Shown in pieces: positions 4,839 to 57,835 of a stretch of DNA of 64,000 nucleotides. Within the stretch, counting starts at the first letter, position 1. The number at the start of each line of letters is the position of its first letter. Source of the stretch: Candidatus Yonathbacteria bacterium (GTDB lineage Bacteria > Patescibacteriota > Minisyncoccia > Phycocordibacterales > UBA1550); NCBI GenBank assembly GCA_016215205.1, contig JACRKU010000024.1, forward strand, positions 4,321-68,320, given 5' to 3'. A program made the position numbers and the translations under genes. The notes beneath the pieces were generated by a model, which was given only the letters and a program-made list of their open reading frames with translations, did no database searches and was not told the DNA's origin.

Positions 4839-5033
4839 TTAGTTTTTCCTACTAAACTCTTTAAGTGCAATCAGTTTTTTAGGATTTACCTTTTGAGCTT
4901 TTTTAAGTTGTTTTATTGTTTGAGATGACAACATCATGCCAAAATCAGGATCAGCAAAAATCTCCTGAACGGACTCAATAATTGTTTGGCGTACGAGAGA
5001 TTGCAATTGTCTTTGTTGAACGATTGTATTCAT
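4839..5033 (-). CDS. Putative antitoxin cognate to the RelE/ParE-like toxin
   Basis: Small ORF (64 aa from the ATG; the track start is TTG at 5075) located 10 nt upstream of the toxin start, the classic antitoxin-toxin arrangement. No family-specific motif recognised. Confidence 0.5.
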   Translation of the reverse strand: MNTIVQQRQLQSLVRQTIIESVQEIFADPDFGMMLSSQTIKQLKKAQKVNPKKLIALKEFSRKN

Positions 5034-5158
5034 AATTATTATATTACCACAGGCACTAGTCTTTGTAAAAATCAATTTCCATCAAAAATTTTGGGTTGAG
5101 GGGGGTCATGTTTCTATTTATTAAAGTCCGCGTTCATTCCGCGTCTAGTCCGCATCTA

Positions 5159-6028
5159 CTATTCGTGCTCACTCTCAATCTGCCCGCCGAGCGTACGAAG
5201 CTCTGCCATCGCATTCGCACCCTGTTCTTTGTCTGGCGGGTTGCCGTGCCACTTGAAGTCGCGCTGAAACATTTCAACACCCTTGCCCGGAATAGTGTGC
5301 GCGATTATGACTGACGGCTTTTCAAAGATCGCTTTTGCTTCATCAATCGCATCAACAATCGCAGACATATTGTGTCCGTCAATCTCGAGAACGTGCCAGC
5401 CGAATGCTGCCCACTTATCCGCAAGCGGTTCGAGGGGCATCACGTTTTCCGTAAAGCCGTCTATTTGGATATTGTTGCGGTCTACAACGGCGACGAGGTT
5501 GTGAAGCTTTTCGCGACCCGCTAGCATCGCCGCCTCCCAGATTTGCCCTTCGTTCAATTCACCGTCGCCCAAAAAAGAGTAAATGGTTCTGTTTGAGCTT
5601 TGTCCGCGGTCGAGGCGGTCCGCAAGCGCCATCCCCACTGCCTGCGAAAGCCCTTGTCCAAGAGGACCGGAGCTTGTTTCAAGCATCGGCAAATACTCGC
5701 GGTGCGGATGCCCCTGAAGTCGTGTGCCGAATTTGCGGAGCGTTTTTAATTCTTTTACAGGGAAATATCCCGCGTGCGCCATCGCCGCATACATCACCGG
5801 GCAAATGTGGCCGTTGGAAAGCACTAGTCGGTCACGGTCTTCCCACTCCGGATTCTTTGGGTCGTGTTTGAGAATATGAAAATAAAATGCGGTAAAAATA
5901 TCCGCCATGCCGAGCGGTCCCGCCGTGTGTCCGGACTTTGCTTCAACAAGCGATTCAATAATCGACTTCCTGATCTCAAGCGCTTTCTCTTCGAGAAATT
6001 TTATTTTGTCGTCGTGGAGATGGGTCAT
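5159..6028 (-). CDS. tkt: Transketolase, N-terminal (TPP-binding) subunit
   Basis: 289 aa; blocks SGHTAGPLGMADI, GDGELNEGQIWEAAMLA, GHPH; TAG stop. Separated from the C-terminal subunit by the TA cassette. Confidence 0.9.
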   Translation of the reverse strand: MTHLHDDKIKFLEEKALEIRKSIIESLVEAKSGHTAGPLGMADIFTAFYFHILKHDPKNPEWEDRDRLVLSNGHICPVMYAAMAHAGYFPVKELKTLRKFGTRLQGHPHREYLPMLETSSGPLGQGLSQAVGMALADRLDRGQSSNRTIYSFLGDGELNEGQIWEAAMLAGREKLHNLVAVVDRNNIQIDGFTENVMPLEPLADKWAAFGWHVLEIDGHNMSAIVDAIDEAKAIFEKPSVIIAHTIPGKGVEMFQRDFKWHGNPPDKEQGANAMAELRTLGGQIESEHE

Positions 6029-10505: not shown

Positions 10506-10724
10506 TTATTTTTTATCCCACGCTTCCCTGCTTATCCCTGCTTGACGAAGAATCCTCACGAGCAAATCAACACTTATTTCTTTTTCGTGAGGGTTTGGGA
10601 TTGTAACCATGAGATTCCCTTTAACCATATATGGATGCTTTCCTTCCTTGTACGGTCCATCAAATCCAAACTTGCGGAGTCGTTGAATCAAAACGCGCAG
10701 AGAAACTGGTCCGAGTTTAGGCAT
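10506..10724 (-). CDS. hicA: Type II toxin HicA (YcfA-like mRNA interferase)
   Basis: 72 aa; LIQRLRKFGFDGPYKEGKHPYMVKG...LVRILRQAGIS follows the HicA pattern (l..Lek.Gw......GSHh.f.h......ip.H..kel..gtl..ilkqag). Confidence 0.75.
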   Translation of the reverse strand: MPKLGPVSLRVLIQRLRKFGFDGPYKEGKHPYMVKGNLMVTIPNPHEKEISVDLLVRILRQAGISREAWDKK

Positions 10725-10974
10725 AAACTTCTTTTTTCGTCTGTATCTTTAGTCGAGGCACTCTAAATCCAGGAATAGGAAGGTTCATTCGCAGACGAAG
10801 AATAACCCACCCCTCTAAAACACTTGCGAGCTCCTTACGGCATGACTCAAGAGTCTTCCCTGTCGCCCACACGCCTTTTAACTGAGGTATCTCGCCGTAG
10901 TACCGTTCCTTATTGTCGATAATTTCATAGCGAGCCTTATCCAAATATGACATTATGTAATCGTGAATCATCAT
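10717..10974 (-). CDS. hicB: Type II antitoxin HicB (N-terminal RNase-H-like domain)
   Basis: Motif YYGEIPQLKGVWATGKTLESCRKELASVLEGWV fits the HicB/UPF0150 pattern. The track start is TTG; in-frame ATGs lie at 10974, 10971 and 10953, so the start is uncertain. Overlaps hicA by 8 nt. Confidence 0.7.
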   Translation of the reverse strand: MMIHDYIMSYLDKARYEIIDNKERYYGEIPQLKGVWATGKTLESCRKELASVLEGWVILRLRMNLPIPGFRVPRLKIQTKKEVYA

Positions 10975-11089
10975 ACGCAAATGGTATCATGGCTAAAAAT
11001 CAAAATCAACGCACGCTGTCACCTAATTCTAATTTTGACCCCTAATTTTTCGTGACGGCACTAAACAAAGGTACCTGACCCCTAATTTT

Positions 11090-11176: not shown

Positions 11177-11395
11177 TTAAACTGTAACCAAAAGCGGTTC
11201 GCGACGCGCTGTTTTCCCTGCGTCATTTTGATTCACCAAACGGTTTGTTTCAATAACAAGCATGAGTGCGTCTTTTAGGTTTTCACGGACTTCTGCAATC
11301 GTGCGTCCTTGTGTATTCACGCCAGAAAGTTCCTCGACCCAGCCAAGGTACCATTTACCGCTTTTTTTATACACTGCTGTGAATTGCTGTTTCAT
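11177..11395 (-). CDS. HicB-like antitoxin (UPF0150 family)
   Basis: 72 aa; FTAVYKKSGKWYLGWVEELSGVNTQGRTIAEVRENLKDALMLVIE fits the HicB N-domain pattern. Confidence 0.6.
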   Translation of the reverse strand: MKQQFTAVYKKSGKWYLGWVEELSGVNTQGRTIAEVRENLKDALMLVIETNRLVNQNDAGKTARREPLLVTV

Positions 11396-14276: not shown

Positions 14277-15251
14277 TTAGGCGAGCGCGTTCGGCGCGGT
14301 GCGACCCGAAAGATGTTCAATGATGTTCGTTGCGACCAACTCCGCCATTTTTGTGCGTGTTTCTTCGGTTGCTGAAGCGAGGTGCGGGTTCACCACCACA
14401 TTCTGCAAAGTTAAAAGTTCAGGTGTTATGTTCGGTTCAAACTCAAACACATCAAGCGCCGCGCCGCGAATGGTTCCTGCTTTGAGCGCGGAAACAAGCG
14501 CAAGCTCGTCCACCACAGGTCCGCGCGAAGTATTTACAAGGAGCGCGCTCTTCTTCATGAGCGCAAGACGCTCCTTGTTGATAAGGTGGTGTGTCGCAGG
14601 AAGGAGCGGCACATGAATACTCACCACGTCGGACTGCGCGAGCACTTCTTCGTATGTCGTGTAGTGCTTCGCATCACACAGAGCTTCAAGCGCTTCATTT
14701 TTCTTGGTGTCATAATAAACAATCTTCATTCCAAAACCATTGTACAAAATCCCCGCAACCTCGGAGCCGATGCGTCCGGCGCCCACGAGACCAAGCGTCT
14801 TGTTTTTGATGTCTGTCCCCAAAAGAAGCATCGGCTCCCATCCGACAAATTTCCCCTCGCGAATAAAGCGGTCCCCTTCTGCAGTGCGAGAAGCAAGTGT
14901 TAAAATAAGCGCCACCGTATGCTCGGCGACGGTCGCCGTGAGAACCTCGGGGGTATTGGTTACCACTATTCCGCGCTCTTTCGCCTTGGGAATATCAATG
15001 TGATTAAAACCAACTGAATAGCTTGCAATTATTTTTACCGATGGGGGCATCGCCGCAATCATATCTGCGTCAATAGTGTCGGTAAGAAGAGGGACAACCG
15101 CATCATACGGCGCCTGCGCCAAAGCCTTCTTCAACTCATCGCGCGTAAGCACACCATCTTTTGAGCTTACGGTCACCCCGTATCCCGCCCCGCGCAACAT
15201 TTCTTCGGCGCGCGCCGGAATGCGTCTCGTCATAAATATCTGTTTTGTCAT
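14277..15251 (-). CDS. D-isomer-specific 2-hydroxyacid dehydrogenase (glyoxylate/hydroxypyruvate reductase-like)
   Basis: Start moved to the ATG giving MTKQIFMTRRIPARAEEML... NAD-binding motif GLVGAGRIGSEVA; catalytic R/E/H positions present. Confidence 0.8.
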   Translation of the reverse strand: MTKQIFMTRRIPARAEEMLRGAGYGVTVSSKDGVLTRDELKKALAQAPYDAVVPLLTDTIDADMIAAMPPSVKIIASYSVGFNHIDIPKAKERGIVVTNTPEVLTATVAEHTVALILTLASRTAEGDRFIREGKFVGWEPMLLLGTDIKNKTLGLVGAGRIGSEVAGILYNGFGMKIVYYDTKKNEALEALCDAKHYTTYEEVLAQSDVVSIHVPLLPATHHLINKERLALMKKSALLVNTSRGPVVDELALVSALKAGTIRGAALDVFEFEPNITPELLTLQNVVVNPHLASATEETRTKMAELVATNIIEHLSGRTAPNALA

Positions 15252-15364
15252 ATACTCAATATTATACCATGAGGACTCTAGCGTGTGCACGTTGCCCGTT
15301 TGAAAAAAACATGGTATACAGACTATACGTTTACGCCCCGTAACCGCGGGCATTTTTACCAAAA
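15252..15364. promoter_or_regulatory. Divergent promoter region between the 2-hydroxyacid DH and GT2 synthase genes, with 8-bp inverted repeat
   Basis: ataccatg ... catggtat inverted repeat separated by about 37 bp; AT-rich. No sigma-70-like consensus could be placed with confidence. Confidence 0.3.
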
Positions 15365-16606
15365 ATGGTCGAAACATTTTTCAACAGCATTCTTTATGTA
15401 TTCCTCTTTCTCACCCTCTATCTCGAGGTGTTTTTTCTCATTACCTTTTTTGAAGAGCGGCTAAAGCTAGGCATCATATCCGTACGCGCAAAACTTTCCC
15501 GATATCCCTCCGTCACTATTATTGTCCCATGCTGGAACGAGGAAAAAACTGTTTCAAAAACAGTCGACTCTCTTCTCGCGCTCCATTACCCGAAAGACAA
15601 ACTCGAAATTTTCATTATTGATGACGGCTCAACCGACCGCACGTGGGAAGTCGTGCAAAAATTTGCAAAAAACACGCAGGTGAAACTTTTCCGCAAAGAG
15701 AACGGCGGAAAACACACTGCGGTAAACTTTGGCATTGAAAATTCCACGGGCGAGCTTGTTGGATGCCTCGACGCGGATTCATTCGTAGACAAAGATGCGC
15801 TCCACGAAATCGCAAGTGCTTTCAACGAAGACCGGCAAATGATGGCGGCAACGCCGATGCTTGTCGTTCATGAGCCGAAAACAATTCTTCAAAAAATGCA
15901 AAAAACAGAGTACCATACGGGCGCATTTTTGAAACGAATGCTTTCGCCTCTTGACGCTATCACGGTGACACCCGGACCATTTTCCATTTTTCGCCGAGAA
16001 GTATTCAAAAAAATCGGCCTCTACAAAAAAGCGCACAATACAGAGGATATGGAATTTGCGCTCCGTATGCAGGCAAACCACATGCGTATCAGGAATGTTC
16101 ACACGGCGCAGGTGCACACCACAACACCCGGAACGCTCTACACGCTCTATCGCCAGCGCCTGCGCTGGGCATACGGCATAATGAAAAATACGCTTGATTA
16201 TCGCTTTATGATTTTCCGGAGCGAGTACGGCATCCTCGGAACGATTGCGCTCCCTTTGTCATTCTTTGGTGTCTTTATTTTTCTCTACAATTTCGGCTTT
16301 ATCGTATTTCATATAGCGCGCGTAATTATAAGCAAAACGGTAGAGATAAGCACCGTCGGACTTTCGTTCGCGCTTCCCCGCGCCGATTCGTTTTTCTTTA
16401 ACACCGATTTTATGTCAATCCTTTCGTATGTCTTTCTTGGGCTTGGGCTGGTCATCATTTGGAACGGGGTCAAGCTCGCGGAGGGGCGTTTCCGTCCAAG
16501 TTCCGGTATCTTTTATTTCATTTTCCTTTATGGTATTGTGGCACCAATCTGGTTTACTCGCGCCGTTGTCAATGTCGCCATTTCTCGAGGCACATCATGG
16601 CGATAG
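15365..16606 (+). CDS. Processive family-2 glycosyltransferase (NodC/HasA/IcaA/PgaC-like polysaccharide synthase)
   Basis: 413 aa: N-terminal TM helices; GT-A core with IVPCWNEE, DDGSTD and DADS (DxD); C-terminal QRLRWAYG (QxxRW processivity motif) followed by 3-4 TM helices. Size class matches NodC/HasA/IcaA. Confidence 0.8.
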   Translation: MVETFFNSILYVFLFLTLYLEVFFLITFFEERLKLGIISVRAKLSRYPSVTIIVPCWNEEKTVSKTVDSLLALHYPKDKLEIFIIDDGSTDRTWEVVQKFAKNTQVKLFRKENGGKHTAVNFGIENSTGELVGCLDADSFVDKDALHEIASAFNEDRQMMAATPMLVVHEPKTILQKMQKTEYHTGAFLKRMLSPLDAITVTPGPFSIFRREVFKKIGLYKKAHNTEDMEFALRMQANHMRIRNVHTAQVHTTTPGTLYTLYRQRLRWAYGIMKNTLDYRFMIFRSEYGILGTIALPLSFFGVFIFLYNFGFIVFHIARVIISKTVEISTVGLSFALPRADSFFFNTDFMSILSYVFLGLGLVIIWNGVKLAEGRFRPSSGIFYFIFLYGIVAPIWFTRAVVNVAISRGTSWR

Positions 16607-16624
16607 GATAGTCGCTACCAAACC

Positions 16625-17332
16625 ATGCGCGCAAAAATCGAAACAAAAAAATATGTATTCGCCTTCATTATTGCCGCAATAGTGTTTTTCGGCGCGCTCG
16701 GCGTGAGCAACCGCTTTTCGGAAAAACGCATCGCGGAAATTAAAACAGTCGAAGATAAAATATCTCTGGATATTCTTTCGTCTGAAACGCAATTCGCGCT
16801 CCTAAAAGAATCTTCGTGCAGGGCCATCGACCACGGAACCGCATTTTCAGAGGAGCTGGGTTCTCTCGCGGCAAAACTCTCATATATGGAAGACAATTTG
16901 GGTAACAATAACCCCAATGTGATAAGCCTCAAAAAATACTATTCTCTCCTCCAGATCAAGGACTACCTTTTGGTCGCGCAAATCAAAGAAAAATGCGGCA
17001 CTAAACCCATTACAGTCATTTATTTCTACTCCAACAATGGCGACTGCGATGATTGCAAAAAAGAAGGATATGTTTTGACAAAACTCCGCGAGGAATATCC
17101 TGAACTTCGCATTTACTCGTTTGACTACAACCTCGACCTTTCCGCGGTTAAAACAATGAAGTCAATCCAGGGGGTGCAAAACAAACTCCCCGCGCTGGTC
17201 ATTTGGGATGAACCATACTACGGTTTCAAGAGCGCCGAGGATGTTGAAAAAATAATTCCACAACTCAAACGCCTCCGCGCCGTGCGCGAAAAAGCCGAGG
17301 CCGCAAAAAGCGCAACAAGCACCAAGAAATAG
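16625..17332 (+). CDS. Membrane-anchored thioredoxin-fold protein with CxxC motif
   Basis: 235 aa; one N-terminal TM helix; VIYFYSNNGDCDDCKK (CxxC) and ...LPALVIW (cis-Pro loop) indicate a thioredoxin fold. It lies 19 nt downstream of the GT2 gene on the same strand. Confidence 0.6.
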   Translation: MRAKIETKKYVFAFIIAAIVFFGALGVSNRFSEKRIAEIKTVEDKISLDILSSETQFALLKESSCRAIDHGTAFSEELGSLAAKLSYMEDNLGNNNPNVISLKKYYSLLQIKDYLLVAQIKEKCGTKPITVIYFYSNNGDCDDCKKEGYVLTKLREEYPELRIYSFDYNLDLSAVKTMKSIQGVQNKLPALVIWDEPYYGFKSAEDVEKIIPQLKRLRAVREKAEAAKSATSTKK

Positions 17333-17376
17333 GACATAGAAAAAATCCGCCTTTGGGCGGATTTTTTCTATGTCCT
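17331..17376. terminator. Strong bidirectional intrinsic terminator
   Basis: 21-bp perfect stem aggacatagaaaaaatccgcc-tttg-ggcggattttttctatgtcct between convergent genes. Confidence 0.75.
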
Positions 17377-17400
17377 AAACTCTACTTTCTAATTTCTATT

Positions 17401-17958
17401 CTACGCTCCCTTCTCAATGAGATCCATGAACGCAACAACTTTTGCTGTGTATGTTGGAACAACCGAATTGTTGTAGTGATGAAGAATCTCCGTGGTAGTT
17501 GCATCCTTGTAGTACTGTTCAGTCTTAGGGTTATTACCGCCAAGGTTCATTGCGACAGTCTCGATAGCGGAATCAAAGTCCTTGAACTTGATTTTGCATG
17601 ACCCCCAACCAAATGGGTTGTTGTTGCAAGCAAACTTACCGCCGGTCGATTCCGCGATAGCAATGGCTGGAAGAAGGCGCCAATCTAGATCATTGTCTAT
17701 GGCTTCTTTCACAAGCTTCGCGCCATAGCCTTCAAGAGGCATATCACGCTTTGCAAAGTAATCATCAATCTTTTTCGCGTGCATTGCATCAGTAGAGGCC
17801 TGCTCGCTTTGCGACATACCATTGGCGTCTATGGCCAAGCCACGAATCAGCTGATTCGAAAACGCAAAGTTAGTATTGAACATCGCGAGCGGGCTTCCGG
17901 CGGTCAAAAATGGAATAAGCATCAAACCGCGCGCGAACTGTATTGTTTGTTTTTTCAT
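17401..17958 (-). CDS. Secreted glucosaminidase/muramidase-domain protein (FlgJ-like)
   Basis: 185 aa; signal peptide; LPAIAIAESTGGKF...NNNPFGWGS fits the glucosaminidase-domain pattern (ESgwG ... NlFG). Confidence 0.5.
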   Translation of the reverse strand: MKKQTIQFARGLMLIPFLTAGSPLAMFNTNFAFSNQLIRGLAIDANGMSQSEQASTDAMHAKKIDDYFAKRDMPLEGYGAKLVKEAIDNDLDWRLLPAIAIAESTGGKFACNNNPFGWGSCKIKFKDFDSAIETVAMNLGGNNPKTEQYYKDATTTEILHHYNNSVVPTYTAKVVAFMDLIEKGA

Positions 17959-23445: not shown

Positions 23446-25413
23446 CTACAGGCTTACATTTGGAATAGGATGTGCTTTCAAGATTTTTTCCGCTTCGGCT
23501 CTTTTCCCGTTCACCATCAAAATCTGCAAATAATACTTCTCGGCAGTCTCAAACTCTGGTGCGAGTTCAAATGCGCGCTTAAATATTTCCTCAGTTTTTA
23601 CTGTGTCCTTCTTGCCGTAATACGCGCTTCCAAGCTCAAATAAAATTGTTTGCTTTGTTGGTGAAAGTTCCAATGCCTTGGTTAAATAAGTGATTCCCTT
23701 ATCTATCTCCCCTGTTTTTGCTAGGAAAGAGCCGGCGAAAAGTTGATGACGCGCGTCGCGCGGAAGCTCTGTGACCTGTTTCTCAATCTCGCTTCCGGCA
23801 AGAGCGAGAAATTGTTTCTGCATGTCCGATATTCCTTTCGATTGGTCGAAAGCGTTCATTGAAAAAGATGCGAGCTGTTCGCGAATCTCTGCTGTTCCAA
23901 ACGAATTATACCCGATAGCATCTTTGAAAAGACCTAGATTATACGACGCTCCTATTTCTGATCGCTCCGATAGTGCGCGAATAAGCGTCGTGTTTTGCAT
24001 ATAGCCGTTGTAGTTTACTGTATAGATGAGCACAAGCGCGAGAATAACTGCGCCACCAGAAACTATGAACGTTAAGTCTTCCTCTTCGGCCCCTGCTTTG
24101 AGTTTGCCCTGTGGTTTTTTGCTTTCGATTTCTCTATGACTCATGCTTTCAATATACGCAAGAATTGTCCCAAAGTAGATAAGTGAAGAGATATTATCAA
24201 ACACAAAAAGATTTTGGAAAAAGTATCCGCCGAGGAGGCCCGTGAACACACTTTTCTCCACAATAGACAATTCGTCTGCTCGACGCCAGATACAATATAT
24301 AGCGCATCCAAAAAGCGACAAGTATCCGAAAAGTCCGAGTGCGCCGCCGGCAATAAGCCAATCAAAAAATACATTGTGCGCGCGGTCAAACCACTGCTCC
24401 TGACCCCACATGTTCGGGTCGTAGTATTTATTGAAAACATAATTGAAATTATCCATTCCCCATCCAAGGATTGGGCGTTCTTTGAATCCTTCAATTGCCA
24501 TGCCCCAAACCATAAGGCGCGCCTTACCTGTTCCCTCGCTTGGAGATATAGCTGCGAGGCGCGACAGAACTGGGCTATTCTGTATGAAAGATGCATCACG
24601 AAGAGCAACAAACCCTCCAACAAAGATTACAATTGCGAGCAAAACACCAATCGCGCCTTTCTGGACAGCTTTGTTGTTTCTCTCAAAAATAGCAACAAGA
24701 AACGTTGCGAGGCCAAGTCCCGCAAGAAGCCCGAGCGTTGCTCCACGCGTCCCAGCGTGGTAAAGCACAAATGTTTGAATGAGAATAATTGCGCCGTATA
24801 TTGCCACACGCGCTCTTTCGCCTGCTGTTGTAAAACTTTGGCGAACAATAAAAAATCCTGCTAAAAAAATATTAAAGAGCGCGTAGGTGCTCAAATACTC
24901 CGCATTGCCGAGAGTACCATTGATACGGATGCCGTCTTGCACGACTTCAAGCGCCCCCGCCCATTGCATGACACCGTAAAGAGCCATGATGACCCCGACG
25001 CCGAGATTAAAGTTTAAATATGGCCGCCAAAAACCGCGCGCGGTGAGCACCGTAGTCGCGACGATAAAGTACGCAAAAAGATGAAAATATGTTACCACTC
25101 CCTCCATTCGCTCAAAGTTGGACCAGAAACTCTTTGCGGGATTTTCGCCAAAGATTGCCGCCATAGTAATAATGCTGATAAATGCGGCAAAAACGCCGAG
25201 GAGATAGCTTTTCTTTGGTCGGTACGTCGGGTCGATAAATGCGAGGACAAGCCACGCAGAAAACATTATTTCAACAACGATACGGAATGCGAAGTTCTTC
25301 CCGACAATAAAAGGGAAAAACGTTGTATCGCCAAGTATGATAAACGGAATAAAAGGCACCGCGAGGAAACCCGCCAAAACCACCGCATTCGCCAAAATTT
25401 TATGTATGTTCAT
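23446..25413 (-). CDS. O-antigen ligase/Wzy-like polytopic membrane protein with C-terminal TPR repeats
   Basis: Start moved to the ATG (MNIHKIL...). About 10 TM helices in the Wzy_C/O-antigen ligase arrangement, then a C-terminal domain of about 250 aa with TPR-like repeats (AYYGKKDTVKTEEIFKRAFEL...). Confidence 0.75.
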   Translation of the reverse strand: MNIHKILANAVVLAGFLAVPFIPFIILGDTTFFPFIVGKNFAFRIVVEIMFSAWLVLAFIDPTYRPKKSYLLGVFAAFISIITMAAIFGENPAKSFWSNFERMEGVVTYFHLFAYFIVATTVLTARGFWRPYLNFNLGVGVIMALYGVMQWAGALEVVQDGIRINGTLGNAEYLSTYALFNIFLAGFFIVRQSFTTAGERARVAIYGAIILIQTFVLYHAGTRGATLGLLAGLGLATFLVAIFERNNKAVQKGAIGVLLAIVIFVGGFVALRDASFIQNSPVLSRLAAISPSEGTGKARLMVWGMAIEGFKERPILGWGMDNFNYVFNKYYDPNMWGQEQWFDRAHNVFFDWLIAGGALGLFGYLSLFGCAIYCIWRRADELSIVEKSVFTGLLGGYFFQNLFVFDNISSLIYFGTILAYIESMSHREIESKKPQGKLKAGAEEEDLTFIVSGGAVILALVLIYTVNYNGYMQNTTLIRALSERSEIGASYNLGLFKDAIGYNSFGTAEIREQLASFSMNAFDQSKGISDMQKQFLALAGSEIEKQVTELPRDARHQLFAGSFLAKTGEIDKGITYLTKALELSPTKQTILFELGSAYYGKKDTVKTEEIFKRAFELAPEFETAEKYYLQILMVNGKRAEAEKILKAHPIPNVSL

Positions 25414-25444
25414 TGTCTCCAACTATATCATAAAAAATCAAAAA

Positions 25445-26113: not shown

Positions 26114-26186
26114 GTAAAATACTGTAGCATAAAGAATCCCGCCAAGCTACTCAACGAAACCAAAATAGTGTACTATGCTCGTATAT

Positions 26187-27269
26187 ATGAAAAAAGCGCT
26201 TATCACCGGCATCACGGGGCAGGACGGTTCATACCTCGCTGAGCTCCTTATCGAAAAAGGGTACGAGGTGCACGGCATCATACGCCGCGCAAGCAGTTTC
26301 AACACGGGAAGAATCGACCACATCTACCAAGACCCGCACGACAAGGGCAAGAGACTATTCCTTCATTATGGCGACCTCACCGACTCCACAAACTTGATAA
26401 GAATAATCAAAGATGTTCAACCTGATGAAATTTACAACCTTGCGGCGCAAAGCCATGTAAAAGTATCTTTTGAGACTCCTGAATATACGGGAAACTCTGA
26501 TGCGCTTGGCACACTTCGAATACTTGAAGCAATTCGCCTACTTGGTCTAGATAAAAAAACAAAATACTATCAGGCATCAACCTCAGAAATGTTTGGGTCG
26601 ACTCCCCCGCCACAGAGTGAAGGTACGGCCTTTTATCCGCGCAGTCCCTACGGAGCGGCAAAACTCTACGCCCACTTTATAACCATAAACTACAGAGAGG
26701 CGTATGGCATCTTTGCGGTGTCGGGAATACTTTTCAATCATGAATCACCTCGCCGCGGCGAAACATTCGTCACAAAAAAAATTACACGCGCGGCCGCAAG
26801 AATAAAATTGGGACTTCAAGAAAAACTATTTTTGGGGAACCTCAACGCAAAACGAGACTGGGGGCACGCCAAAGATTATGTCAAAGCGATGTATCTGATG
26901 CTTCAACAACCCGCGCCAAAAGACTACGTCATAGCAACAGGTACACAATATTCCGTAAGAGAATTCTGTGAAGCTGTTTTTAAAGAACTGGACATAACAA
27001 TCATCTGGCAAGGAAAAGGTATCGACGAAAAAGGCATTGACAAAAAAACCGGAAAAACAATTATTGAAATTGACCCGCGCTATTTCCGCCCCGCAGAAGT
27101 CGAGTCACTGCTTGGCGACCCGACCAAAGCAAAAAATGAACTGGGATGGGGGGCCGAGATAAGTTTCGCGGAGCTGGTCAAAGAAATGGTCGCGACTGAC
27201 CTCGAAGAAGCGCAGATGGATGTCCACATGGAAAAGGGAGGTTTTATAACCAAAAAGCATCACGAATAA
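26187..27269 (+). CDS. gmd: GDP-mannose 4,6-dehydratase
   Basis: Start at the ATG giving [31 protein letters not shown], nearly identical in pattern to the E. coli Gmd N-terminus; SEMFG, YGAAK (YxxxK), NHESPRRG blocks. Confidence 0.9.
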
Positions 27270-27270
27270 T

Positions 27271-27744
27271 ATGCAAAATTTGCTCCCACGCGAAAAATAT
27301 AGAGAGGTTCTCGACATTACTCCTGTTTGTACTGCTGATATATTATTTTTCAACAGTGATAAAACAAAAACACTTCTCTTTAAAAGAGAAAACGAGCCGC
27401 TTCGAGGTGTTTATTTTTCTGTCGGCGGACGGCTTCTAAAGAATGAGCTATTGGAAAACTGCGCCGTACGCCAAGGGCTTCGAGAAGCGGGTATAAACAT
27501 AAATAGAAACGAGCTCACATTTGGCGGCGTACAAGAAGAGCTTCATCCGAATTCAGTGTTTGAAGGAGTGTCCTACCACGCGGTCGTTATTTACTACGGC
27601 TATGTGCTCAATGATGATGAGCTGATAAAACTTGATAGTCAGCACAGCGATTACGAATGGTTTTCTGTGTCTGATGATTCACTGCATCCGTTCATTAAAT
27701 CCAGAATTGCCAATTTGTTAAAAATCTATGGGAAAAAAATCTAA
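27271..27744 (+). CDS. NUDIX-family hydrolase (GDP-mannose mannosyl hydrolase-like by position)
   Basis: 157 aa; degenerate Nudix box GGRLLKNELLENCAVRQGLREAGI; sits between gmd and fcl as wcaH/gmm does in colanic-acid-type loci. Confidence 0.55.
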   Translation: MQNLLPREKYREVLDITPVCTADILFFNSDKTKTLLFKRENEPLRGVYFSVGGRLLKNELLENCAVRQGLREAGININRNELTFGGVQEELHPNSVFEGVSYHAVVIYYGYVLNDDELIKLDSQHSDYEWFSVSDDSLHPFIKSRIANLLKIYGKKI

Positions 27745-28657
27745 AATTTTTGTTGCGGGTCATCGCGGGCTCGTGGGTTCGGCGATTGTGCGCGCGCTTC
27801 AAAAAAGGGGTTTCGCAAACCTCGTCCTCAAAACGCATGCGGAGCTCGACCTGACTAATCAAGATGCAGTTGCAGATTTTTTTGCACAAGAAAAGCCGGA
27901 GTATGTCTTTCTTTCAGCCGCAAAGGTGGGCGGCATCATGGCAAACAAAACCTTCCCCGCCGATTTCATTTACAATAACCTCGCAATACAAACAAATGTC
28001 ATTCATAATGCCCATATACACAAAGTAAAAAAATTGTTGTTTCTCGGAAGCTCCTGCATCTATCCCAAGTTATGTCCGCAACCAATAAAAGAGGAGTATC
28101 TTTTGACGAGCGCCCTTGAACCATCCAACAAGGCTTACGCGGTAGCAAAAATCGCGGGAATAATTATGTGTCAGTCATACAACGAACAGTATGGCACCAA
28201 TTTCATCTCGCTTATGCCAACCAACCTTTATGGTCCTCACGACAACTTTGACCTTGAAAACTCGCATGTGATGCCGGGAATGATTCGAAAATTCCACGAA
28301 GCTAAACTGGGCGATAAACCGAGTGTTACCTTGTGGGGCACAGGGAGCGCGATGCGCGAATTTCTGCACATAGACGACCTCGCGGAGGCAAGTTTATTTT
28401 TGATGGAGAATTACAACGATTCTTCTATTATTAATGTGGGGACAGGAGAAGACGTGACAATAAAAGAACTCGCGGAAAAAATAAAAAAAGTCGTAGGATA
28501 TAATGGCGAGATTGTTTGGGACAAAACTATGCCGGATGGTACTCCTAGAAAACTTCTTGATGTAAGCAAGCTCCACGCGCTTGGATGGAAACACTCTGTT
28601 CAACTCGGCGAAGGCATCTCATCAACGTATAATTGGTTTAAAGAGAACTATAAATAA
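27728..28657 (+). CDS. fcl: GDP-L-fucose synthase (GDP-4-keto-6-deoxymannose 3,5-epimerase/4-reductase)
   Basis: 309 aa; IFVAGHRGLVGSAIVR, SSCIYPK, YAVAK (YxxxK), NLYGPHDNF blocks characteristic of Fcl/WcaG. Confidence 0.85.
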   Translation: MGKKSKIFVAGHRGLVGSAIVRALQKRGFANLVLKTHAELDLTNQDAVADFFAQEKPEYVFLSAAKVGGIMANKTFPADFIYNNLAIQTNVIHNAHIHKVKKLLFLGSSCIYPKLCPQPIKEEYLLTSALEPSNKAYAVAKIAGIIMCQSYNEQYGTNFISLMPTNLYGPHDNFDLENSHVMPGMIRKFHEAKLGDKPSVTLWGTGSAMREFLHIDDLAEASLFLMENYNDSSIINVGTGEDVTIKELAEKIKKVVGYNGEIVWDKTMPDGTPRKLLDVSKLHALGWKHSVQLGEGISSTYNWFKENYK

Positions 28658-28663
28658 CTAACC

Positions 28664-29524
28664 TTAGATCCTCACCCACCCTTCGGGGATTATGTTGGGA
28701 TGTGGGTCTGGAGCTATGTTTACCCATTTTTTAGGAGCAATGACTATCTTGTTTGGATTTTTATTAAGGTATGCTCCCCACCAAGAAAAAGAAGAGTTTG
28801 CGATGATGTTGTGGGCACATGAGGACATTAACATTAGCTCTTCATACTCCTCGAGACTAGGGCTTGAAACATATTTAAAATCGGCATGCTCCCCGAACTC
28901 TTTTTTGACCCACTCGATATCGTCAGAGAAAAAGTAGAATATTGGCGAATCAACTTTTGACCTCATTAAACTCATTGCCTGCTCATAATACTCCTTCGAA
29001 CATACCCCGTGAGTACTATTTATTTTAGGGTCGCTCACATAGTCCCCTCTTCTAATATGCACGGAGACACTATTCACTTTATCAATCTTACTTTTCTCCA
29101 GTAAAAAAATTTTTGATTCATTTTTAAAAGTGAACTCTTTAAGTACCTTATCCTTTATGTTGAGAAAGTTTTTTTCTGACTGAAAATATCCTTCAATATA
29201 ATTGTGGCTTTTCTTTAAAAAATTGGGATTATAATCCAGATTATGCTTCTTTAAAACCCTTTGATTAAGAGCTCTCAACAATTTTGAAATAACCCCGAGC
29301 GGATTTCTCGCCTTTTCAACTTCGTTGATAGTCGCGATATTTCCTGAAAGATTAAGGGGAAACATTTTATATTGCCTCGGCGTATTCGCATTAACATAGC
29401 GCGGGTCATCATACCCAGTAATATCAAGCTTCATCTCTTGGTTGTGCGCAGTAGCAATAGCAAGCCCTGTCGCATACTGAAACATCTGGTTCCCGAGACC
29501 TCCTTTTAATTTAATGGTAATCAT
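28664..29524 (-). CDS. GT11-family alpha-1,2-fucosyltransferase
   Basis: 286 aa; LKGGLGNQMFQYA N-terminal motif and HIRRGDY motif are the signature of glycosyltransferase family 11 (FutC/WbgL-like). Confidence 0.8.
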   Translation of the reverse strand: MITIKLKGGLGNQMFQYATGLAIATAHNQEMKLDITGYDDPRYVNANTPRQYKMFPLNLSGNIATINEVEKARNPLGVISKLLRALNQRVLKKHNLDYNPNFLKKSHNYIEGYFQSEKNFLNIKDKVLKEFTFKNESKIFLLEKSKIDKVNSVSVHIRRGDYVSDPKINSTHGVCSKEYYEQAMSLMRSKVDSPIFYFFSDDIEWVKKEFGEHADFKYVSSPSLEEYEELMLMSSCAHNIIANSSFSWWGAYLNKNPNKIVIAPKKWVNIAPDPHPNIIPEGWVRI

Positions 29525-38102: not shown

Positions 38103-40022
38103 TTATCTTATTGCATTTACCATCATGTTCTCTGGTTTTTCATTTTTATAATGATGAAATGAAATAGACTTGTACTTATTTGCGTATTGTTTTGTTAACG
38201 CTGATAACGGGAGCAACTTTTCTCTTGGTAGAGCCGTGTTATAAAAAGGAGTGAAGCAAATCTCTGATGGATAATTTCTCTTCATCCAGTTTGCGTATGT
38301 GTCATAATCAGAAACACACGAGGGCTCCTTCTGATCTATTGTTGACAAATACACCTTATCCCACGTTGCACCATGTAGATCCCCAATACGCTTCTTCATC
38401 TCTTTAAGTCTCTCGCAATCAAAAATCATCATATGCGCTGTATAGGAGAGCGTATTATTGCTTGAGTACCCAAATAATTTTTTAAACGCTCTAAAATACT
38501 GGTCATGCCATTCCTCACTTTGCAAAAATACATCCTTTCCATTTTTAATAAACGAATGTGGTTTAATTAAAATAGTATCAGAATCTAAAATAAAATACTT
38601 TTTTTGTGTTACGAATATGTCTCCTGATAGCTTCAATAATTGCTGAAATATCCACCCGCTTCTATCCTTCCCGTTTACTACATAATTAATAAAATCTTTC
38701 CCGTACCCCAAAACGGAAACCTCATCTACAAAAACATAATTATGCTTTTCGCAAAATTCCAGCATTTCCTTATTTTTTTGAGAGACAATATAGAAATTAG
38801 AAATCTTGTGCTTCAGATTTTCCTTTATAGATTCTATAACTTCCCCAACTAATGTATAGTCTTTTGACACAGTAGGGATAACCACATCAATAATCTCTGA
38901 TTGGGTATGCAAATCAATCTCGTTAAATTCAACCTTAAAAACTTTTCTTATCTTCAAAAAAAGAAAGGCGGAAATGAGAAAAGGGTTCCATTCTCTTGAT
39001 TTGCATAAATTTATAAATACATCAACCTTTTTGATAAATGTAAAAATCATTCCAATACCAGCTTTAAATAAAATTGTTGTCCTTTTTTTTATTCTCATCA
39101 TAATCCCTTTTATGCTCGCGCGTTTTATATACTTTCTATTGTGAAATAATGTCTTATCTTTTTTACGGGCAGGCGTCAAAAAGGCTGCGTAATTTTCGTT
39201 AAGTATGTTTCCTTTTTTCTTTAACTCCTCAAAAAGATTTCGCGAGAAATCCTGACAATCAAACTTCAGGATGAAGTTTTGTGCTTCGGCATTAAACAAC
39301 GACAAGTGCTCTGACAAAATATCCTGCCAATTATAATTTATCTTTCCAGAATCAGATTCCCTAATATAATAGGATTTTTTGTATTGTACCCTGTGCAGAT
39401 ACGAAGCCTCCGGGCAAGTATAAGCAACAAGTCCGCTAGCGAGAAATCTCCATGCAAACCCCTGTGTATCAAAACCGTGTTCCGTGGGGTACCCGCCCGC
39501 AATAACAAAAGCTCTTTTAGTATGCATGAATGTTGAATAGAGAGGGCACATAATTCCATCCTTTTGCAAAAGGCTTTCAAAGGGTATTTTTTCTCCTGCA
39601 AAACTAAAAATATCTACGCGCTCAATATCATTAGTATTTCTCCCCCTAAACTTGATTGATTTATGAATACCCACCCCATCACATTTTTTCTCATTCATAA
39701 ATTTGAACATTCTGGAAAGAGTGTCCTGTGGGAGGATATCATCGCTATCAAGGCAAAAAATAATTTCTGCGCTTGTGTGACTGACAGCGGTGTTCCTTGT
39801 TGCTCCGCCACCTCTATTTTTATCATGGTAAAAAATCTTAATTTCAGAATGCTTATTTGCGAGCTCCTTCATCACCGTCTTTGTGCTATCAGTTGACCAA
39901 TCATCCACCATTATGATTTCAAAATTCCGCAGACCTTGAACATAGCAGGATTCCACTGCCTCCTCAAGAGTTTCAGCGCAATTGAAGCAGGGGATTACTA
40001 TTGAAATATCTTTTTTAGGCAT
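38103..40022 (-). CDS. Two-domain glycosyltransferase: N-terminal GT2 domain + uncharacterised C-terminal domain of about 350 aa
   Basis: Start moved to the ATG (MPKKDISIVIPCFN...). GT2 blocks IVIPCFN, MVDDWSTD, DSDD. The C-terminal half (from about aa 300) has no recognised motif. Confidence 0.7.
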   Translation of the reverse strand: MPKKDISIVIPCFNCAETLEEAVESCYVQGLRNFEIIMVDDWSTDSTKTVMKELANKHSEIKIFYHDKNRGGGATRNTAVSHTSAEIIFCLDSDDILPQDTLSRMFKFMNEKKCDGVGIHKSIKFRGRNTNDIERVDIFSFAGEKIPFESLLQKDGIMCPLYSTFMHTKRAFVIAGGYPTEHGFDTQGFAWRFLASGLVAYTCPEASYLHRVQYKKSYYIRESDSGKINYNWQDILSEHLSLFNAEAQNFILKFDCQDFSRNLFEELKKKGNILNENYAAFLTPARKKDKTLFHNRKYIKRASIKGIMMRIKKRTTILFKAGIGMIFTFIKKVDVFINLCKSREWNPFLISAFLFLKIRKVFKVEFNEIDLHTQSEIIDVVIPTVSKDYTLVGEVIESIKENLKHKISNFYIVSQKNKEMLEFCEKHNYVFVDEVSVLGYGKDFINYVVNGKDRSGWIFQQLLKLSGDIFVTQKKYFILDSDTILIKPHSFIKNGKDVFLQSEEWHDQYFRAFKKLFGYSSNNTLSYTAHMMIFDCERLKEMKKRIGDLHGATWDKVYLSTIDQKEPSCVSDYDTYANWMKRNYPSEICFTPFYNTALPREKLLPLSALTKQYANKYKSISFHHYKNEKPENMMVNAIR

Positions 40023-41064
40023 AATCTTTGTGAATACCAATAACACCTCCAAGACTTTCTAAATCCGCTTTTGTAATTATTTCTACCAATTCATCAAAGG
40101 TCACCTTTGGTTCCCATTTAAGAACTTTCTTTGCGCGAGAACTATCTCCTAGCACACTATTTACTTCATTCGGTCTATAGTATTTTGGGTTAATTCTTAA
40201 AATAATTTTCCCTGAGGAATCTTTAGCAACTTCTTTAAGCCCCTTTCCATGCCATGTTATTTTCATATCAAGAGCGTTTGCTGTTGCATTCACAAAATCC
40301 CTGACCGAATGGCTTTCACCGGTTGAAATAACAAAATCTTGCGGGGTTTTTTGCTGAAGCATCAACCACATAGCCTCAACATAATCTTTTGCATATCCCC
40401 AATCTCGCTTTGCGTCAAGATTACCAAGCTCAAACGAGTCCTGAAGGCCTAACTTTATTTTTACCATTGAATGAGTAATTTTCCTAGTTACAAAGTTTCT
40501 GCCTCGTCGGGGAGATTCGTGGTTGAAAAGAATCCCTGCGCAGATAAAAAAATTATGTCGTTTCCTATATTCAACAACGTAATCATTGTGAGCTTTTACC
40601 TTCGATTCTGCGTATGGACTTACTGGATTAAAAGGAGTTGTTTCTTTTTGTGGTGTTTCAAGCACATTCCCAAACATTTCAGAGGATGATGCCTGATATA
40701 TCCTTACCTGCGGATTTAAGTGAGTCGCCTCGCTAACTAATCTACCAAATCCATTATAATTGACCTCCATGGTTTCTTCTGGACACTGAAAAGAAACTCC
40801 GACTTGAGATTGCGCTCCTAGGTTATATATTTCATCTGGTCTTGATTCTTCTAGCGCTCGGATAATAGAATTATTATCCCTCATGTCACCGTAAATAATT
40901 TTTATCATGCGGTCCAAAGATAACCTCTCAATTCTCATTAATGGATCGGTGCTTGCTGGTCTCACAAGGCCATACACTTTATATCTCTTCTTTAACAAAA
41001 ATTCAGCAAGATAAGAGCCGTCCTGGCCGGTAATGCCTGTAATTAAGGCTCTTTTTTGTTTCAT
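40015..41064 (-). CDS. Second GDP-sugar 4,6-dehydratase paralogue (Gmd family; candidate GDP-manno-heptose 4,6-dehydratase DmhA-like)
   Basis: 349 aa; [29 protein letters not shown] (YxxxK), NHESPRRG. Clearly homologous to Gmd at 26187 but divergent (not a recent duplicate). Directly upstream of the GDP-heptose genes. Confidence 0.8.
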   Translation of the reverse strand: MKQKRALITGITGQDGSYLAEFLLKKRYKVYGLVRPASTDPLMRIERLSLDRMIKIIYGDMRDNNSIIRALEESRPDEIYNLGAQSQVGVSFQCPEETMEVNYNGFGRLVSEATHLNPQVRIYQASSSEMFGNVLETPQKETTPFNPVSPYAESKVKAHNDYVVEYRKRHNFFICAGILFNHESPRRGRNFVTRKITHSMVKIKLGLQDSFELGNLDAKRDWGYAKDYVEAMWLMLQQKTPQDFVISTGESHSVRDFVNATANALDMKITWHGKGLKEVAKDSSGKIILRINPKYYRPNEVNSVLGDSSRAKKVLKWEPKVTFDELVEIITKADLESLGGVIGIHKDYA

Positions 41065-50769: not shown

Positions 50770-50837
50770 TTGCAAGGTTTCTTTATCTTCCCCATTATAG
50801 CTGAAATTAGAGGAAATAGGATATAATATAAGTTCCT

Positions 50838-57710: not shown

Positions 57711-57720
57711 GGGGGAGTTG

Positions 57721-57765
57721 ATAGCCACTAGTCAATAGCCAATAGTGAATAGCAGATACGATAAA
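57721..57765 (-). repeat. 7-nt periodic CTATTNN array abutting the start codon of the T4CP-like gene
   Basis: Minus strand reads CTATTCA CTATTGG CTATTGA CTAGTGG CTATCAA CTCCCCC ATG. Confidence 0.5.
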
Positions 57766-57790: not shown

Positions 57791-57835
57791 AAAAACACAG
57801 GTGCGATTGGCTACGCCAATCGCACCTGTGTTTTT
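57791..57835. terminator. Bidirectional intrinsic terminator
   Basis: aaaaacacaggtgcgattggc-tac-gccaatcgcacctgtgttttt, 18-bp perfect stem. Confidence 0.75.

Follow-up and report, generated by a model that had tools for sequence, protein, structure and literature searches.

The described arrangements nearest to the locus reported here are icaADBC and pgaABCD, whose gene roles are familiar from the poly-N-acetylglucosamine (PNAG) systems of staphylococci and Escherichia coli. They combine a glycosyltransferase of family 2 (GT2), IcaA or PgaC, with a small membrane partner, IcaD or PgaD, and a deacetylase. A stretch of 64,000 nucleotides from a Candidatus Yonathbacteria bacterium (contig JACRKU010000024.1, positions 4,321 to 68,320 of the forward strand; from here on, the window) contains a locus in which a GT2 gene is directly followed by the gene for a membrane-anchored protein, here called the partner, with a thioredoxin-fold head and a CxxC motif. 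The first-pass annotation of the window had called this arrangement undescribed, and the literature searched indeed holds no description of this pair; a paper on Patescibacteria and PNAG treats PgaC in other phyla. The locus represents a glycan system of synthase type whose partner is of a new class; it is strictly conserved and common to bacteria of the candidate phyla radiation (CPR) and DPANN archaea. With slightly better than even confidence, we propose that the two proteins are subunits of a single membrane machine for the synthesis and export of a surface glycan.

The locus shares with icaADBC and pgaABCD a GT2 of PgaC/IcaA type, this family being the top NCBIfam match for the window protein and for the archaeal orthologue alike. 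It also shares a membrane partner gene right after the synthase gene, in the place of icaD or pgaD, an analogy of position only. In some lineages a deacetylase and a polytopic protein join the pair, and the order GT2, partner, PMT_2-like protein and PIG-L in one locus (L097) echoes A-D-B-C. The GT2, however, reaches 173 bits where the equivalog cut-off is 422. IcaD and PgaD are small proteins with two transmembrane helices and no soluble domain; the partner, with one transmembrane helix and about 185 residues of stalk and thioredoxin head, is unrelated to them, and neither family appears among its Pfam and NCBIfam results. The deacetylase of the known systems belongs to carbohydrate esterase family 4 (CE4), and that found here to the PIG-L family (CE14); every component other than the GT2 is replaced by an unrelated fold. 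No link to cyclic di-GMP is known here, and the genes occur in CPR bacteria and DPANN archaea.

For a partner with a single transmembrane helix and an extracytoplasmic alpha/beta domain, the nearest precedent is BcsB, which is required for the activity of BcsA, a membrane GT2 with the same D, DxD, TED and QxxRW motifs. When the window GT2 was searched against PDB sequences, BcsA gave the sole long matches running through the QxxRW region (query residues 9-315; 9-314 for 4hg6). BcsB differs from the partner in its C-terminal anchor, much larger size, carbohydrate-binding and flavodoxin-like domains and lack of a CxxC motif, and no sequence or fold match between the two was found among the Foldseek matches listed. 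BcsA, with eight transmembrane helices and a PilZ domain, is also unlike the window GT2, which has one helix before and three after the catalytic domain. NodC resembles the window GT2 in size and in this 1+3 layout; its model matches the window GT2 with E 2e-24 and the archaeal orthologue with E 1.5e-28, Chitin_synth_2 is matched above its cut-off, and the NodC product is later de-N-acetylated. NodC, however, needs no thioredoxin-type partner, its deacetylase NodB is a cytoplasmic CE4 enzyme, and the window GT2 scores 86 bits against a NodC cut-off of 550.

The linkage of the two genes was counted from the partner side. A scan of a genome collection with one representative per species yielded at least 579 confirmed stretches, and adjacency was counted in the best 80 loci, all with Patescibacteria-type titles. 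By tblastn, a GT2 orthologue adjoins the partner gene in every one of the 80. In 78 it immediately precedes the partner gene on the same strand, with a spacing of -9 to about 230 nt, and in the other two (L075 and L083) it directly follows that gene. The genes around the pair in the window (Obg, MYG1, VTT, holin-4-like, 2-hydroxyacid dehydrogenase, a 185-residue protein, SecA and MurB) accompany it only in the 15 closest loci; elsewhere the flanks hold other housekeeping genes (GyrB, PheS, EF-Ts, S2, RF, ThrRS, L31, L25). No further polysaccharide gene recurs beside the pair in the 80 genome loci.

Distant members of the partner family (around 30% identity) are archaeal, with cluster members named Woesearchaeota and Nanoarchaeota. 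A homologue search from one of them (P0249) returned four proteins, one of which led to the archaeal contig L087. On contigs carrying archaeal markers (S3Ae, RadA, eRF1, PCNA, PolB, L34e) the GT2 gene is again directly upstream, typically overlapping the partner gene by 7 nt; the archaeal GT2 is 39% identical to that of the window, and the flanking genes are unrelated. A metagenome scan seeded with archaeal-type partners added 80 loci, 62 of them with enough flanking sequence to judge, and the GT2 is adjacent in 61 of these. In the sole interrupted locus (L175), a gene for a hydrolase of the haloacid dehalogenase (HAD) family (motif DxDGVLxDS, positions 5030-5665) stands between the two in the same orientation. 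By their marker genes, 26 of the metagenome loci are archaeal only and 19 bacterial only, and none has both; the archaeal contigs L087, L088-L092 and L096 show the pair as well.

The adjacency thus outlasts turnover of the flanking genes, a swap of gene order and the divide between bacteria and archaea, which indicates a real unit and not local synteny. Distance matrices for the GT2 and the partner from 74 loci correlate with r = 0.85 (maximum of the permutations 0.22), which is consistent with co-inheritance but is not proof of contact. Of the two results that the first-pass annotation had named as able to overturn its proposal, one was a lack of conservation of the pair elsewhere; the genome, metagenome and archaeal loci all show the pair conserved. 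The other, a second protein without a thioredoxin fold, is contradicted by the model described below. We conclude, from gene context, that the GT2 and its partner very probably constitute a functional two-gene unit. That the partner might be a general extracytoplasmic oxidoreductase (DsbA-, ResA- or TlpA-like), placed beside the GT2 by synteny only, would fit its membrane-anchored thioredoxin fold, CxxC motif and cis-proline, and its family profile gives weak matches to BdbD, ResA and DsbA-like proteins. Such chance proximity is nevertheless very improbable, given the persistence of the adjacency, a hypervariable CxxC dipeptide, the loss of cysteines in some members and a family-specific stalk with its own conserved cysteine pair.

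The window GT2 matches the Pfam families Glycos_transf_2 (PF00535, E 8.8e-36), Glyco_tranf_2_3 (PF13641, E 2.6e-29) and Glyco_trans_2_3 (PF13632), identifying a family-2 catalytic domain of GT-A type, and Chitin_synth_2 with 36 bits (cut-off 27). Among NCBIfam models, PgaC_IcaA (E 9.7e-51) is followed by the XrtG-associated glycosyltransferase, CelA, MftF and NodC; the archaeal orthologue covers positions 15-374 of the 407-position PgaC_IcaA model. The D, DxD, (T)ED and Q(R/Q)xRW motif set of membrane-embedded GT2 synthases is complete (Table 1), and across 76 orthologues conservation is 97% or higher for D87, G88, S89, D136, D138, E227, D228, Q264, R265, R267 and W268. In the translation, a hydrophobic helix at the N-terminus and three at the C-terminus were recognized by eye, without a hydropathy program. 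These motifs and helices bear out the architecture given in the first-pass annotation. Of its further description as a processive synthase of PgaC/IcaA/NodC type, the motifs and layout hold; "processive" is a reading of the motifs, and the score lies below the equivalog cut-off. Judged by this NCBI criterion the GT2 is not a PgaC/IcaA equivalog, though PgaC_IcaA is its best-matching family.

From these matches, the GT2 is probably a synthase of an exported glycan. Because its best matches are PgaC/IcaA, NodC and chitin synthase, and because a dedicated deacetylase occurs beside the pair in some lineages, we tentatively suggest, at a little short of even confidence, that the product is based on N-acetylhexosamine (HexNAc). 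The extreme C-terminus of the GT2 is conserved as well: 57 of the 76 orthologues end in Trp-Arg directly before the stop codon (...SWR in the window, the two codons at 16598-16603), and W412 is at least 97% conserved. Such conservation at the very end of the chain is unusual, and it might mark a point of contact with the partner.

The partner belongs to a large family that the Pfam scan did not match and for which NCBIfam gave only a weak match of PDO/thioredoxin type. A search at E<=1e-3 of a 90%-clustered database found 4179 homologues, falling into 888 clusters at 50% identity; nearly all have 205-245 residues and can be aligned end to end. Judged by its sequences, this is an uncharacterised family without a Pfam model and with five signature residues, conserved in 111 partners as C65 (98%), C124 (99%), C141 (96%), C144 (99%) and P189 (100%); Y106, F134/Y135, Y164/F166 and others follow. 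One archaeal member (P0273) carries a precomputed Pfam tag, PF20207, which hmmscan did not reproduce at E<=1.

An AlphaFold2 model computed from an alignment of 61 diverse family members (alignment A2, 25-55% identity) has a predicted local distance difference test score (pLDDT) of 92.8 and a predicted template modelling score (pTM) of 0.80; it replaced a model from the single sequence with a pLDDT of 43.5. The head forms a beta-alpha-beta-alpha-beta-beta-alpha unit (residues 129-210) followed by the C-terminal helix, and the anchor continues into the stalk as one helix (residues 7-61). Natural thioredoxins account for the top 13 and for nearly all of the 50 Foldseek matches listed from the PDB, the remainder being thioredoxin-based designed proteins, one domain resembling protein disulfide isomerase and one unrelated entry. 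The leading matches have a probability of 1.00 and template modelling scores (target) of 0.62-0.79, and they cover the head only. The family profile matches thioredoxin 4o32 (E 7.5e-7), placing the CxxC over the thioredoxin WCxxC and P189 over the cis-proline. Archaeal partners give sub-threshold Thioredoxin_3, Glutaredoxin and YruB matches over the same residues, and one is named "thioredoxin family protein" by NCBI. The partner thus has, in the model and the alignments, both the fold of the thioredoxin superfamily and its CxxC at the start of helix 1 with a cis-proline loop before strand 3, as the first-pass annotation had proposed for the second protein; the head is, by this modelling, a thioredoxin fold.

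The stalk domain, with its own conserved cysteine pair, is particular to the partner family, and anchor plus stalk have no structural counterpart among the 50 Foldseek matches listed. C65 closes the first stalk helix and C124 the last, and in the predicted helix topology these two ends should meet away from the membrane, making a disulfide that staples the stalk likely. A single metal site formed by all four cysteines was considered and is unlikely, as C124 and the CxxC lie at opposite ends of strand 1 in the predicted topology. The segment before the anchor carries a higher net charge than the segment after it in 91 of 114 family representatives, with the reverse in nine; because the N-terminal flank is the more positive, the N-terminus is predicted to be inside and the thioredoxin head outside.

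Family-wide variation at the CxxC site bears on its function. Classical oxidoreductase families conserve both the dipeptide between the cysteines and the first cysteine. The partner family instead uses 54 different dipeptides in 107 cluster representatives, with proline at the first position in 31% and aspartate at the second in 45%, and nine of 117 representatives deviate at the motif itself (three CxxxC, one CxC, three with the second cysteine only and two with neither). A tenth flagged representative (P0205) was discounted, being truncated at its N-terminus. The family thus lacks the characteristic dipeptide and the indispensable N-terminal nucleophilic cysteine of catalytic oxidoreductases. 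This hypervariability and loss of cysteines make Dsb- or ResA-like catalysis by the partner doubtful. Of the label "thiol-disulfide oxidoreductase" in the first-pass annotation, therefore, the thioredoxin fold stands and the assignment to a conventional oxidoreductase family does not. Comparison with ResA, CcmG/DsbE, TlpA and BdbA/BdbD gives the same picture. They share with the partner an N-terminal anchor, an extracytoplasmic thioredoxin fold, a CxxC and a cis-proline, but have characteristic dipeptides and defined protein substrates; the partner family is further set apart by its occasional cysteine loss, its putative disulfide-stapled stalk and its obligate linkage to a GT2.

Judging from these patterns, the CxxC site would be at least as likely to act as a redox switch, to form a structural disulfide or to bind an acceptor as to catalyse thiol-disulfide exchange. 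Redox activity of the partner CxxC in vivo is conceivable, though we lean somewhat against it. Control of the synthase through a direct disulfide, one form of the redox control raised by the first-pass annotation, is unlikely: the only cysteine columns in the 76 GT2 orthologues are at positions 56 and 134, both inside the cytoplasmic catalytic domain, so that a thioredoxin head outside the cell could not exchange disulfides with them. A GT2 beside oxidoreductase genes is a described arrangement in glycocin clusters, such as that of sublancin, where sunS stands with bdbA and bdbB, and by analogy the window GT2 could glycosylate a cysteine-containing peptide whose disulfides the thioredoxin protein forms. 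We find this scarcely credible, since no precursor-peptide or ABC-transporter gene recurs beside the pair, the flanks in the 80 genome loci are housekeeping genes, and the QRLRW motif, transmembrane bundle and full-length PgaC/IcaA match differ from a soluble enzyme of SunS type.

The accessory genes that recur beside the pair in some lineages and the distribution across CPR and DPANN, both absent from the first-pass annotation, change which mechanisms can be entertained. A PIG-L domain (GlcNAc de-N-acetylase family, CE14) is fused to the partner C-terminus, with no intervening transmembrane helix, in two independent clusters, P0133 (five contigs, including L094 and L095) and P0168; in these the GT2 is still directly upstream. 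In L055 a separate PIG-L gene with its own N-terminal anchor overlaps the partner stop codon, and in L097 (convergent) and L152 (downstream) the PIG-L protein is also anchored N-terminally. The PIG-L proteins near the pair are about 40% identical to each other between lineages, which suggests a dedicated subfamily. Because the fusions put PIG-L on the same side as the thioredoxin head, and from the anchor charges, the deacetylase is predicted to be outside; its action on the product would be a hint that an N-acetylhexosamine product reaches the outside. An analogy with mycothiol and bacillithiol synthesis, which also combines a glycosyltransferase, PIG-L and thiol chemistry, was dropped, as those pathways use soluble cytoplasmic enzymes of glycosyltransferase family 4 (GT4).

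PIG-L is also the point from which a different product could be argued. Its family is named after the de-N-acetylation of a GlcNAc-lipid, and a non-processive or weakly processive GT2 might place GlcNAc or glucose on a scavenged lipid, with PIG-L, where present, turning it into a cationic glucosamine-lipid and the partner serving as membrane cofactor; ceramide glucosyltransferase of glycosyltransferase family 21 (GT21), the cyanobacterial MGlcDG synthase and HpnI would be the models. Glyco_transf_21 of Pfam matches the window GT2 (E 2.1e-11) and every orthologue listed, HpnI matches the archaeal orthologue (E 7e-14), the small 1+3 layout seen by eye would fit, and CPR and DPANN cells depend on host lipids. 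PgaC/IcaA, NodC and CelA, however, give far stronger and longer matches than GT21 or HpnI do. PIG-L is predicted outside with the thioredoxin head, so that the lipid would first have to be flipped, and a membrane glycolipid gives no reason for a thioredoxin head on a stalk of about 5 nm. We regard a glycolipid synthase as rather improbable.

In archaea the pair is accompanied by two polytopic proteins of 450-520 residues, A and B, which share its operon in 21 of the metagenome loci as well as in L088-L091 and L096; A-B-GT2-partner is the usual gene order, and none of the 21 carries bacterial markers. The profile of family A matches STT3 (E 5.6e-9 and 3.5e-6) and PglB (E 2.5e-5), that of family B the C-terminal domains of AglB (E 1.3e-6), and the two families are paralogous (hhalign E 3.9e-42). 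In family A, "D.YF..R" of the first external loop (EL1) aligns to "DPWFNFR" of STT3, and the C-terminal "...eeGhlIt..a.rknviDsnf" to "WWDYGYQIT..ANRT.LVDNNT"; by this alignment the WWDYG-equivalent region is homologous and its WWD residues are lost. Across the A/B pairs (L088-L091, L096, L099-L158; for example L089:1957-4778) the EL1 motif is kept and the WWD of WWDYG is absent. On sequence grounds, A and B may be a divergent, uncharacterised branch of oligosaccharyltransferase (OST)-like enzymes. Five loci (L097, L102, L119, L122 and L159) have a PMT_2-like gene whose start lies at the partner stop codon or no more than about 70 nt beyond it. None of the accessory genes (PIG-L, A, B, PMT_2) is present in the 64-kb window, where no homologue of A, B or PMT_2 was found at E<1e-4, and no gene for a glycosyltransferase of GT-C type recurs within 8 kb in the 80 CPR genome loci.

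These archaeal operons bring to mind the Ost3 and Ost6 subunits of yeast and TUSC3 and MagT1 of humans, CxxC thioredoxin-domain subunits of a membrane glycosyltransferase complex that hold acceptors by transient mixed disulfides; to our knowledge, the Ost3/6-TUSC3 proteins are the only CxxC thioredoxin subunits dedicated to a membrane glycosyltransferase. By analogy, the GT2 could build or export a lipid-linked sugar or glycan that GT-C enzymes transfer to surface proteins or polymers, with the thioredoxin head as acceptor holder. The operons shared with A and B, the profile matches and paralogy of these two families, the PMT_2-like genes just 3' of the partner and a CxxC and cis-proline site on the predicted outside face of the head would all suit such a pathway, in which, as in the Ost3/Ost6 complex, a non-cytoplasmic CxxC thioredoxin domain serves a membrane glycosyltransferase machine co-encoded, in archaea, with STT3/AglB-like proteins. 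Yet the invariant linkage is to the GT2 and not to GT-C proteins, A and B are without the WWD residues that bind the sequon, and some partners are without one or both CxxC cysteines. The domain order of Ost3/Ost6 is reversed, with the thioredoxin domain N-terminal and four transmembrane helices after it, and neither Foldseek, in which Ost6 and TUSC3 are not singled out among the thioredoxin matches, nor the profile search gave anything specific beyond the generic thioredoxin fold.

The same question can be put from the side of the GT2. In the three-component glycosylation systems (GtrB/GacI-GacJ-GacL, CsbB-YfhO, ArnC-ArnD-ArnT and LgmABC), a GT2 acts with, in some cases, a small membrane activator (GacJ) or a deacylase (ArnD, LgmC), and with an extracytoplasmic GT-C enzyme, a cast of genes comparable to that around the pair in L097 and the archaeal operons. 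Their GT2s, however, transfer sugars to polyprenyl phosphate, lack QxxRW and have two C-terminal transmembrane helices, and the window GT2 is far nearer to PgaC/IcaA (E 1e-50) than to ArnC (E 2e-9, partial) or AglJ. Taken together, we consider a lipid-linked pathway unlikely.

Several points weigh against our preferred reading of the pair as a glycan-making and exporting machine. Its starting points are the motifs, the modelled fold and the linkage, from which we infer activity, product and interaction. The equivalog cut-off of PgaC_IcaA (TIGR03937, 422.3 bits) is missed by the window GT2 and the archaeal orthologue alike, the score being the same for both; a GT2 with one plus three helices is as close to NodC, a maker of short oligomers, as to a polymer exporter; and enzymes with QxxRW in the GT2 and GT21 families include non-processive glycolipid or lipid glycosyltransferases. 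The outside location of the head is deduced solely from the flank charges and the conserved cysteines that it carries. GT-C proteins are often co-encoded, which would suit a lipid-linked donor pathway no less well than a free polymer, and since the adjacency counts start from loci found through the partner, they survey GT2 genes that have one. An apparent GT2-partner fusion (P0188, 717 residues) was set aside as an artefact and is not used as evidence. Its DNA has no in-frame stop, but adding one A to an A6 run (L093:5184-5189) restores a 411-residue GT2 ending in ...VSWC*, with the partner ATG 35 nt further on. Because this end matches the family C-terminus xW(R), an error or mutation of one nucleotide best explains the fusion, the run length being likely an assembly error in a public metagenome-assembled genome or else a recent frameshift.

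With these reservations, the preferred machine could work as follows. The GT2 would use a cytoplasmic UDP-sugar, most likely UDP-GlcNAc or the UDP derivative of another HexNAc, and pass a beta-linked oligo- or polysaccharide, possibly primed by a lipid, through its helix bundle. The transmembrane helix of the partner would pack against the synthase and be needed for its activity or stability, in the manner of IcaD/PgaD or BcsB; on balance, we expect the synthase to require its partner for activity. The stalk, of which 33 helical residues (29-61) rise from the anchor, would keep the thioredoxin head about 5 nm off the membrane, on the side where the chain emerges. Outside, lineage-specific enzymes would process the product: anchored or fused PIG-L in some CPR, and GT-C proteins elsewhere, PMT_2-like in some CPR and archaea and the two STT3/AglB-like proteins in archaea. 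The CxxC and cis-proline site would then more likely respond to redox state as a switch, hold a structural disulfide or bind the acceptor than act as a classical catalytic oxidoreductase.

Table 1. Features of the GT2-partner locus, with positions in the window and residues in the respective protein
Feature	Position (nt)	Strand	Residues	Remarks
GT2 gene	15365..16606	+	413 aa	open reading frame
GT2 layout (predicted)				N-terminal transmembrane helix, cytoplasmic GT-A domain, interface helix with QRLRW, three C-terminal transmembrane helices
DDG motif	15620..15628	+	86-88	from the DNA; nucleotide-sugar binding motif of GT2 enzymes
DAD (DxD) motif	15770..15778	+	136-138	read in the sequence
TED motif	16040..16048	+	226-228	catalytic-base position in BcsA-type synthases
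QRLRW motif	16154..16168	+	264-268	read in the sequence
Intergenic spacer, 18 nt	16607..16624	+		from GT2 stop to partner start
Partner gene	16625..17332	+	235 aa	open reading frame; single-pass protein with N-terminal transmembrane anchor, helical stalk, thioredoxin head and Lys/Ala-rich C-terminal helix
Transmembrane anchor	16652..16708	+	10-28	hydropathy; single hydrophobic helix
Helical stalk	16709..16996	+	29-124	AlphaFold2 helices 7-61, 65-70, 73-92, 97-124
Stalk cysteine C65	16817-16819	+	65	near-invariant
Stalk cysteine C124	16994-16996	+	124	near-invariant
Thioredoxin-fold head	16997..17260	+	125-212	AlphaFold2, Foldseek, profile match
CDDC	17045-17056	+	141-144	thioredoxin-type active-site position
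cis-Pro P189	17189-17191	+	189	profile alignment to thioredoxins
Hairpin	17330..17377	.		perfect 22-bp stem, 4-nt loop, flanking A and U runs

Both open reading frames lie where the first-pass annotation had placed them (Table 1), and its distance of 19 nt between the genes is effectively right, the counted spacer being one nucleotide shorter. The hairpin behind the partner gene has a predicted folding free energy of -37.7 kcal/mol (z -11.6 against shuffled sequence); the terminator proposed earlier thus keeps its perfect stem, with 22 bp in place of 21. As the hairpin sits between convergent genes, it is probably an intrinsic terminator that acts in both directions, closing the two-gene unit as well as the opposite gene at 17401-17958. 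A scan for sigma-70 promoters over 15100-17700 found sites no more numerous than in shuffled sequence, and no promoter is claimed. The convergent gene (17401-17958, minus strand) encodes the 185-residue protein mentioned above, with an N-terminal hydrophobic segment and a weak Glucosaminidase match (PF01832, E 0.013). We place it outside the GT2-partner module because it accompanies the pair only in close Yonathbacteria-like loci.

The partner is 100% identical to a hypothetical protein of a Candidatus Yonathbacteria metagenome-assembled genome, which places the window in the Patescibacteria (CPR, Paceibacteria/Parcubacteria). The rest of the window holds GatB, Obg, SecA, MurB, Mur ligases and GAPDH, as suits a bacterium with a small genome, and other glycan-related genes. 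About 6 kb from the pair, a polytopic protein of 658 residues (23446-25422, minus strand) has a Wzy_C/O-antigen-ligase domain and C-terminal TPR repeats; it is not conserved beside the pair in other lineages. An island of low GC content (26175-54362; GC 0.35-0.40 over about 28-54 kb, compared with 0.45-0.50 elsewhere) carries glycan-biosynthesis genes: two GDP-mannose 4,6-dehydratases (26175-27269 and 40015-41064), an epimerase (27728-28657), a fucosyltransferase-like protein of glycosyltransferase family 11 (GT11; 28664-29524), GDPD and WavE-like proteins, a 649-residue protein combining GT2 and DUF6492 (38103-40052), a C-methyltransferase and a Wzx-type flippase (49216-50775). This island looks like a separate, Wzx-dependent heteropolysaccharide cluster, possibly acquired horizontally. 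Small open reading frames of 72, 87 and 72 residues at 10506-10980 and 11177-11395 (minus strand) resemble, by eye, HicA-like toxins and HicB-like antitoxins. A homologue of VirD4/TraG-type coupling proteins (55797-57728, minus strand) is followed by a secreted protein with lamin-tail and PKD domains (54410-55804, minus strand), and a putative glycosyl hydrolase of DUF4015 is encoded at 57834-59075.

Much of microbial diversity consists of CPR bacteria and DPANN archaea. Both are ultra-small and host-dependent and live attached to other cells; how their surfaces are constructed is little understood. The pair is a compact module found in both domains, in at least 579 stretches, always linked in the loci examined and set amid housekeeping genes. 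This constant linkage, two-domain distribution and housekeeping surroundings suggest a core envelope function and not an accessory biofilm trait. If the thioredoxin head gates or assists glycan synthesis, it would represent a new control of synthase-type glycosyltransferases and a possible prokaryotic parallel to the OST-oxidoreductase association. Going further by analogy, the pair might be the core of an ancient surface-glycosylation machine common to CPR and DPANN, whose thioredoxin subunit would use its CxxC to hold or sense cysteine-containing acceptors as Ost3 and Ost6 do. We regard this as a speculation and decidedly unlikely; if it were true, it would be the first redox-assisted glycosylation in prokaryotes, and the pair would be a candidate determinant of the surface with which these cells attach to their hosts.

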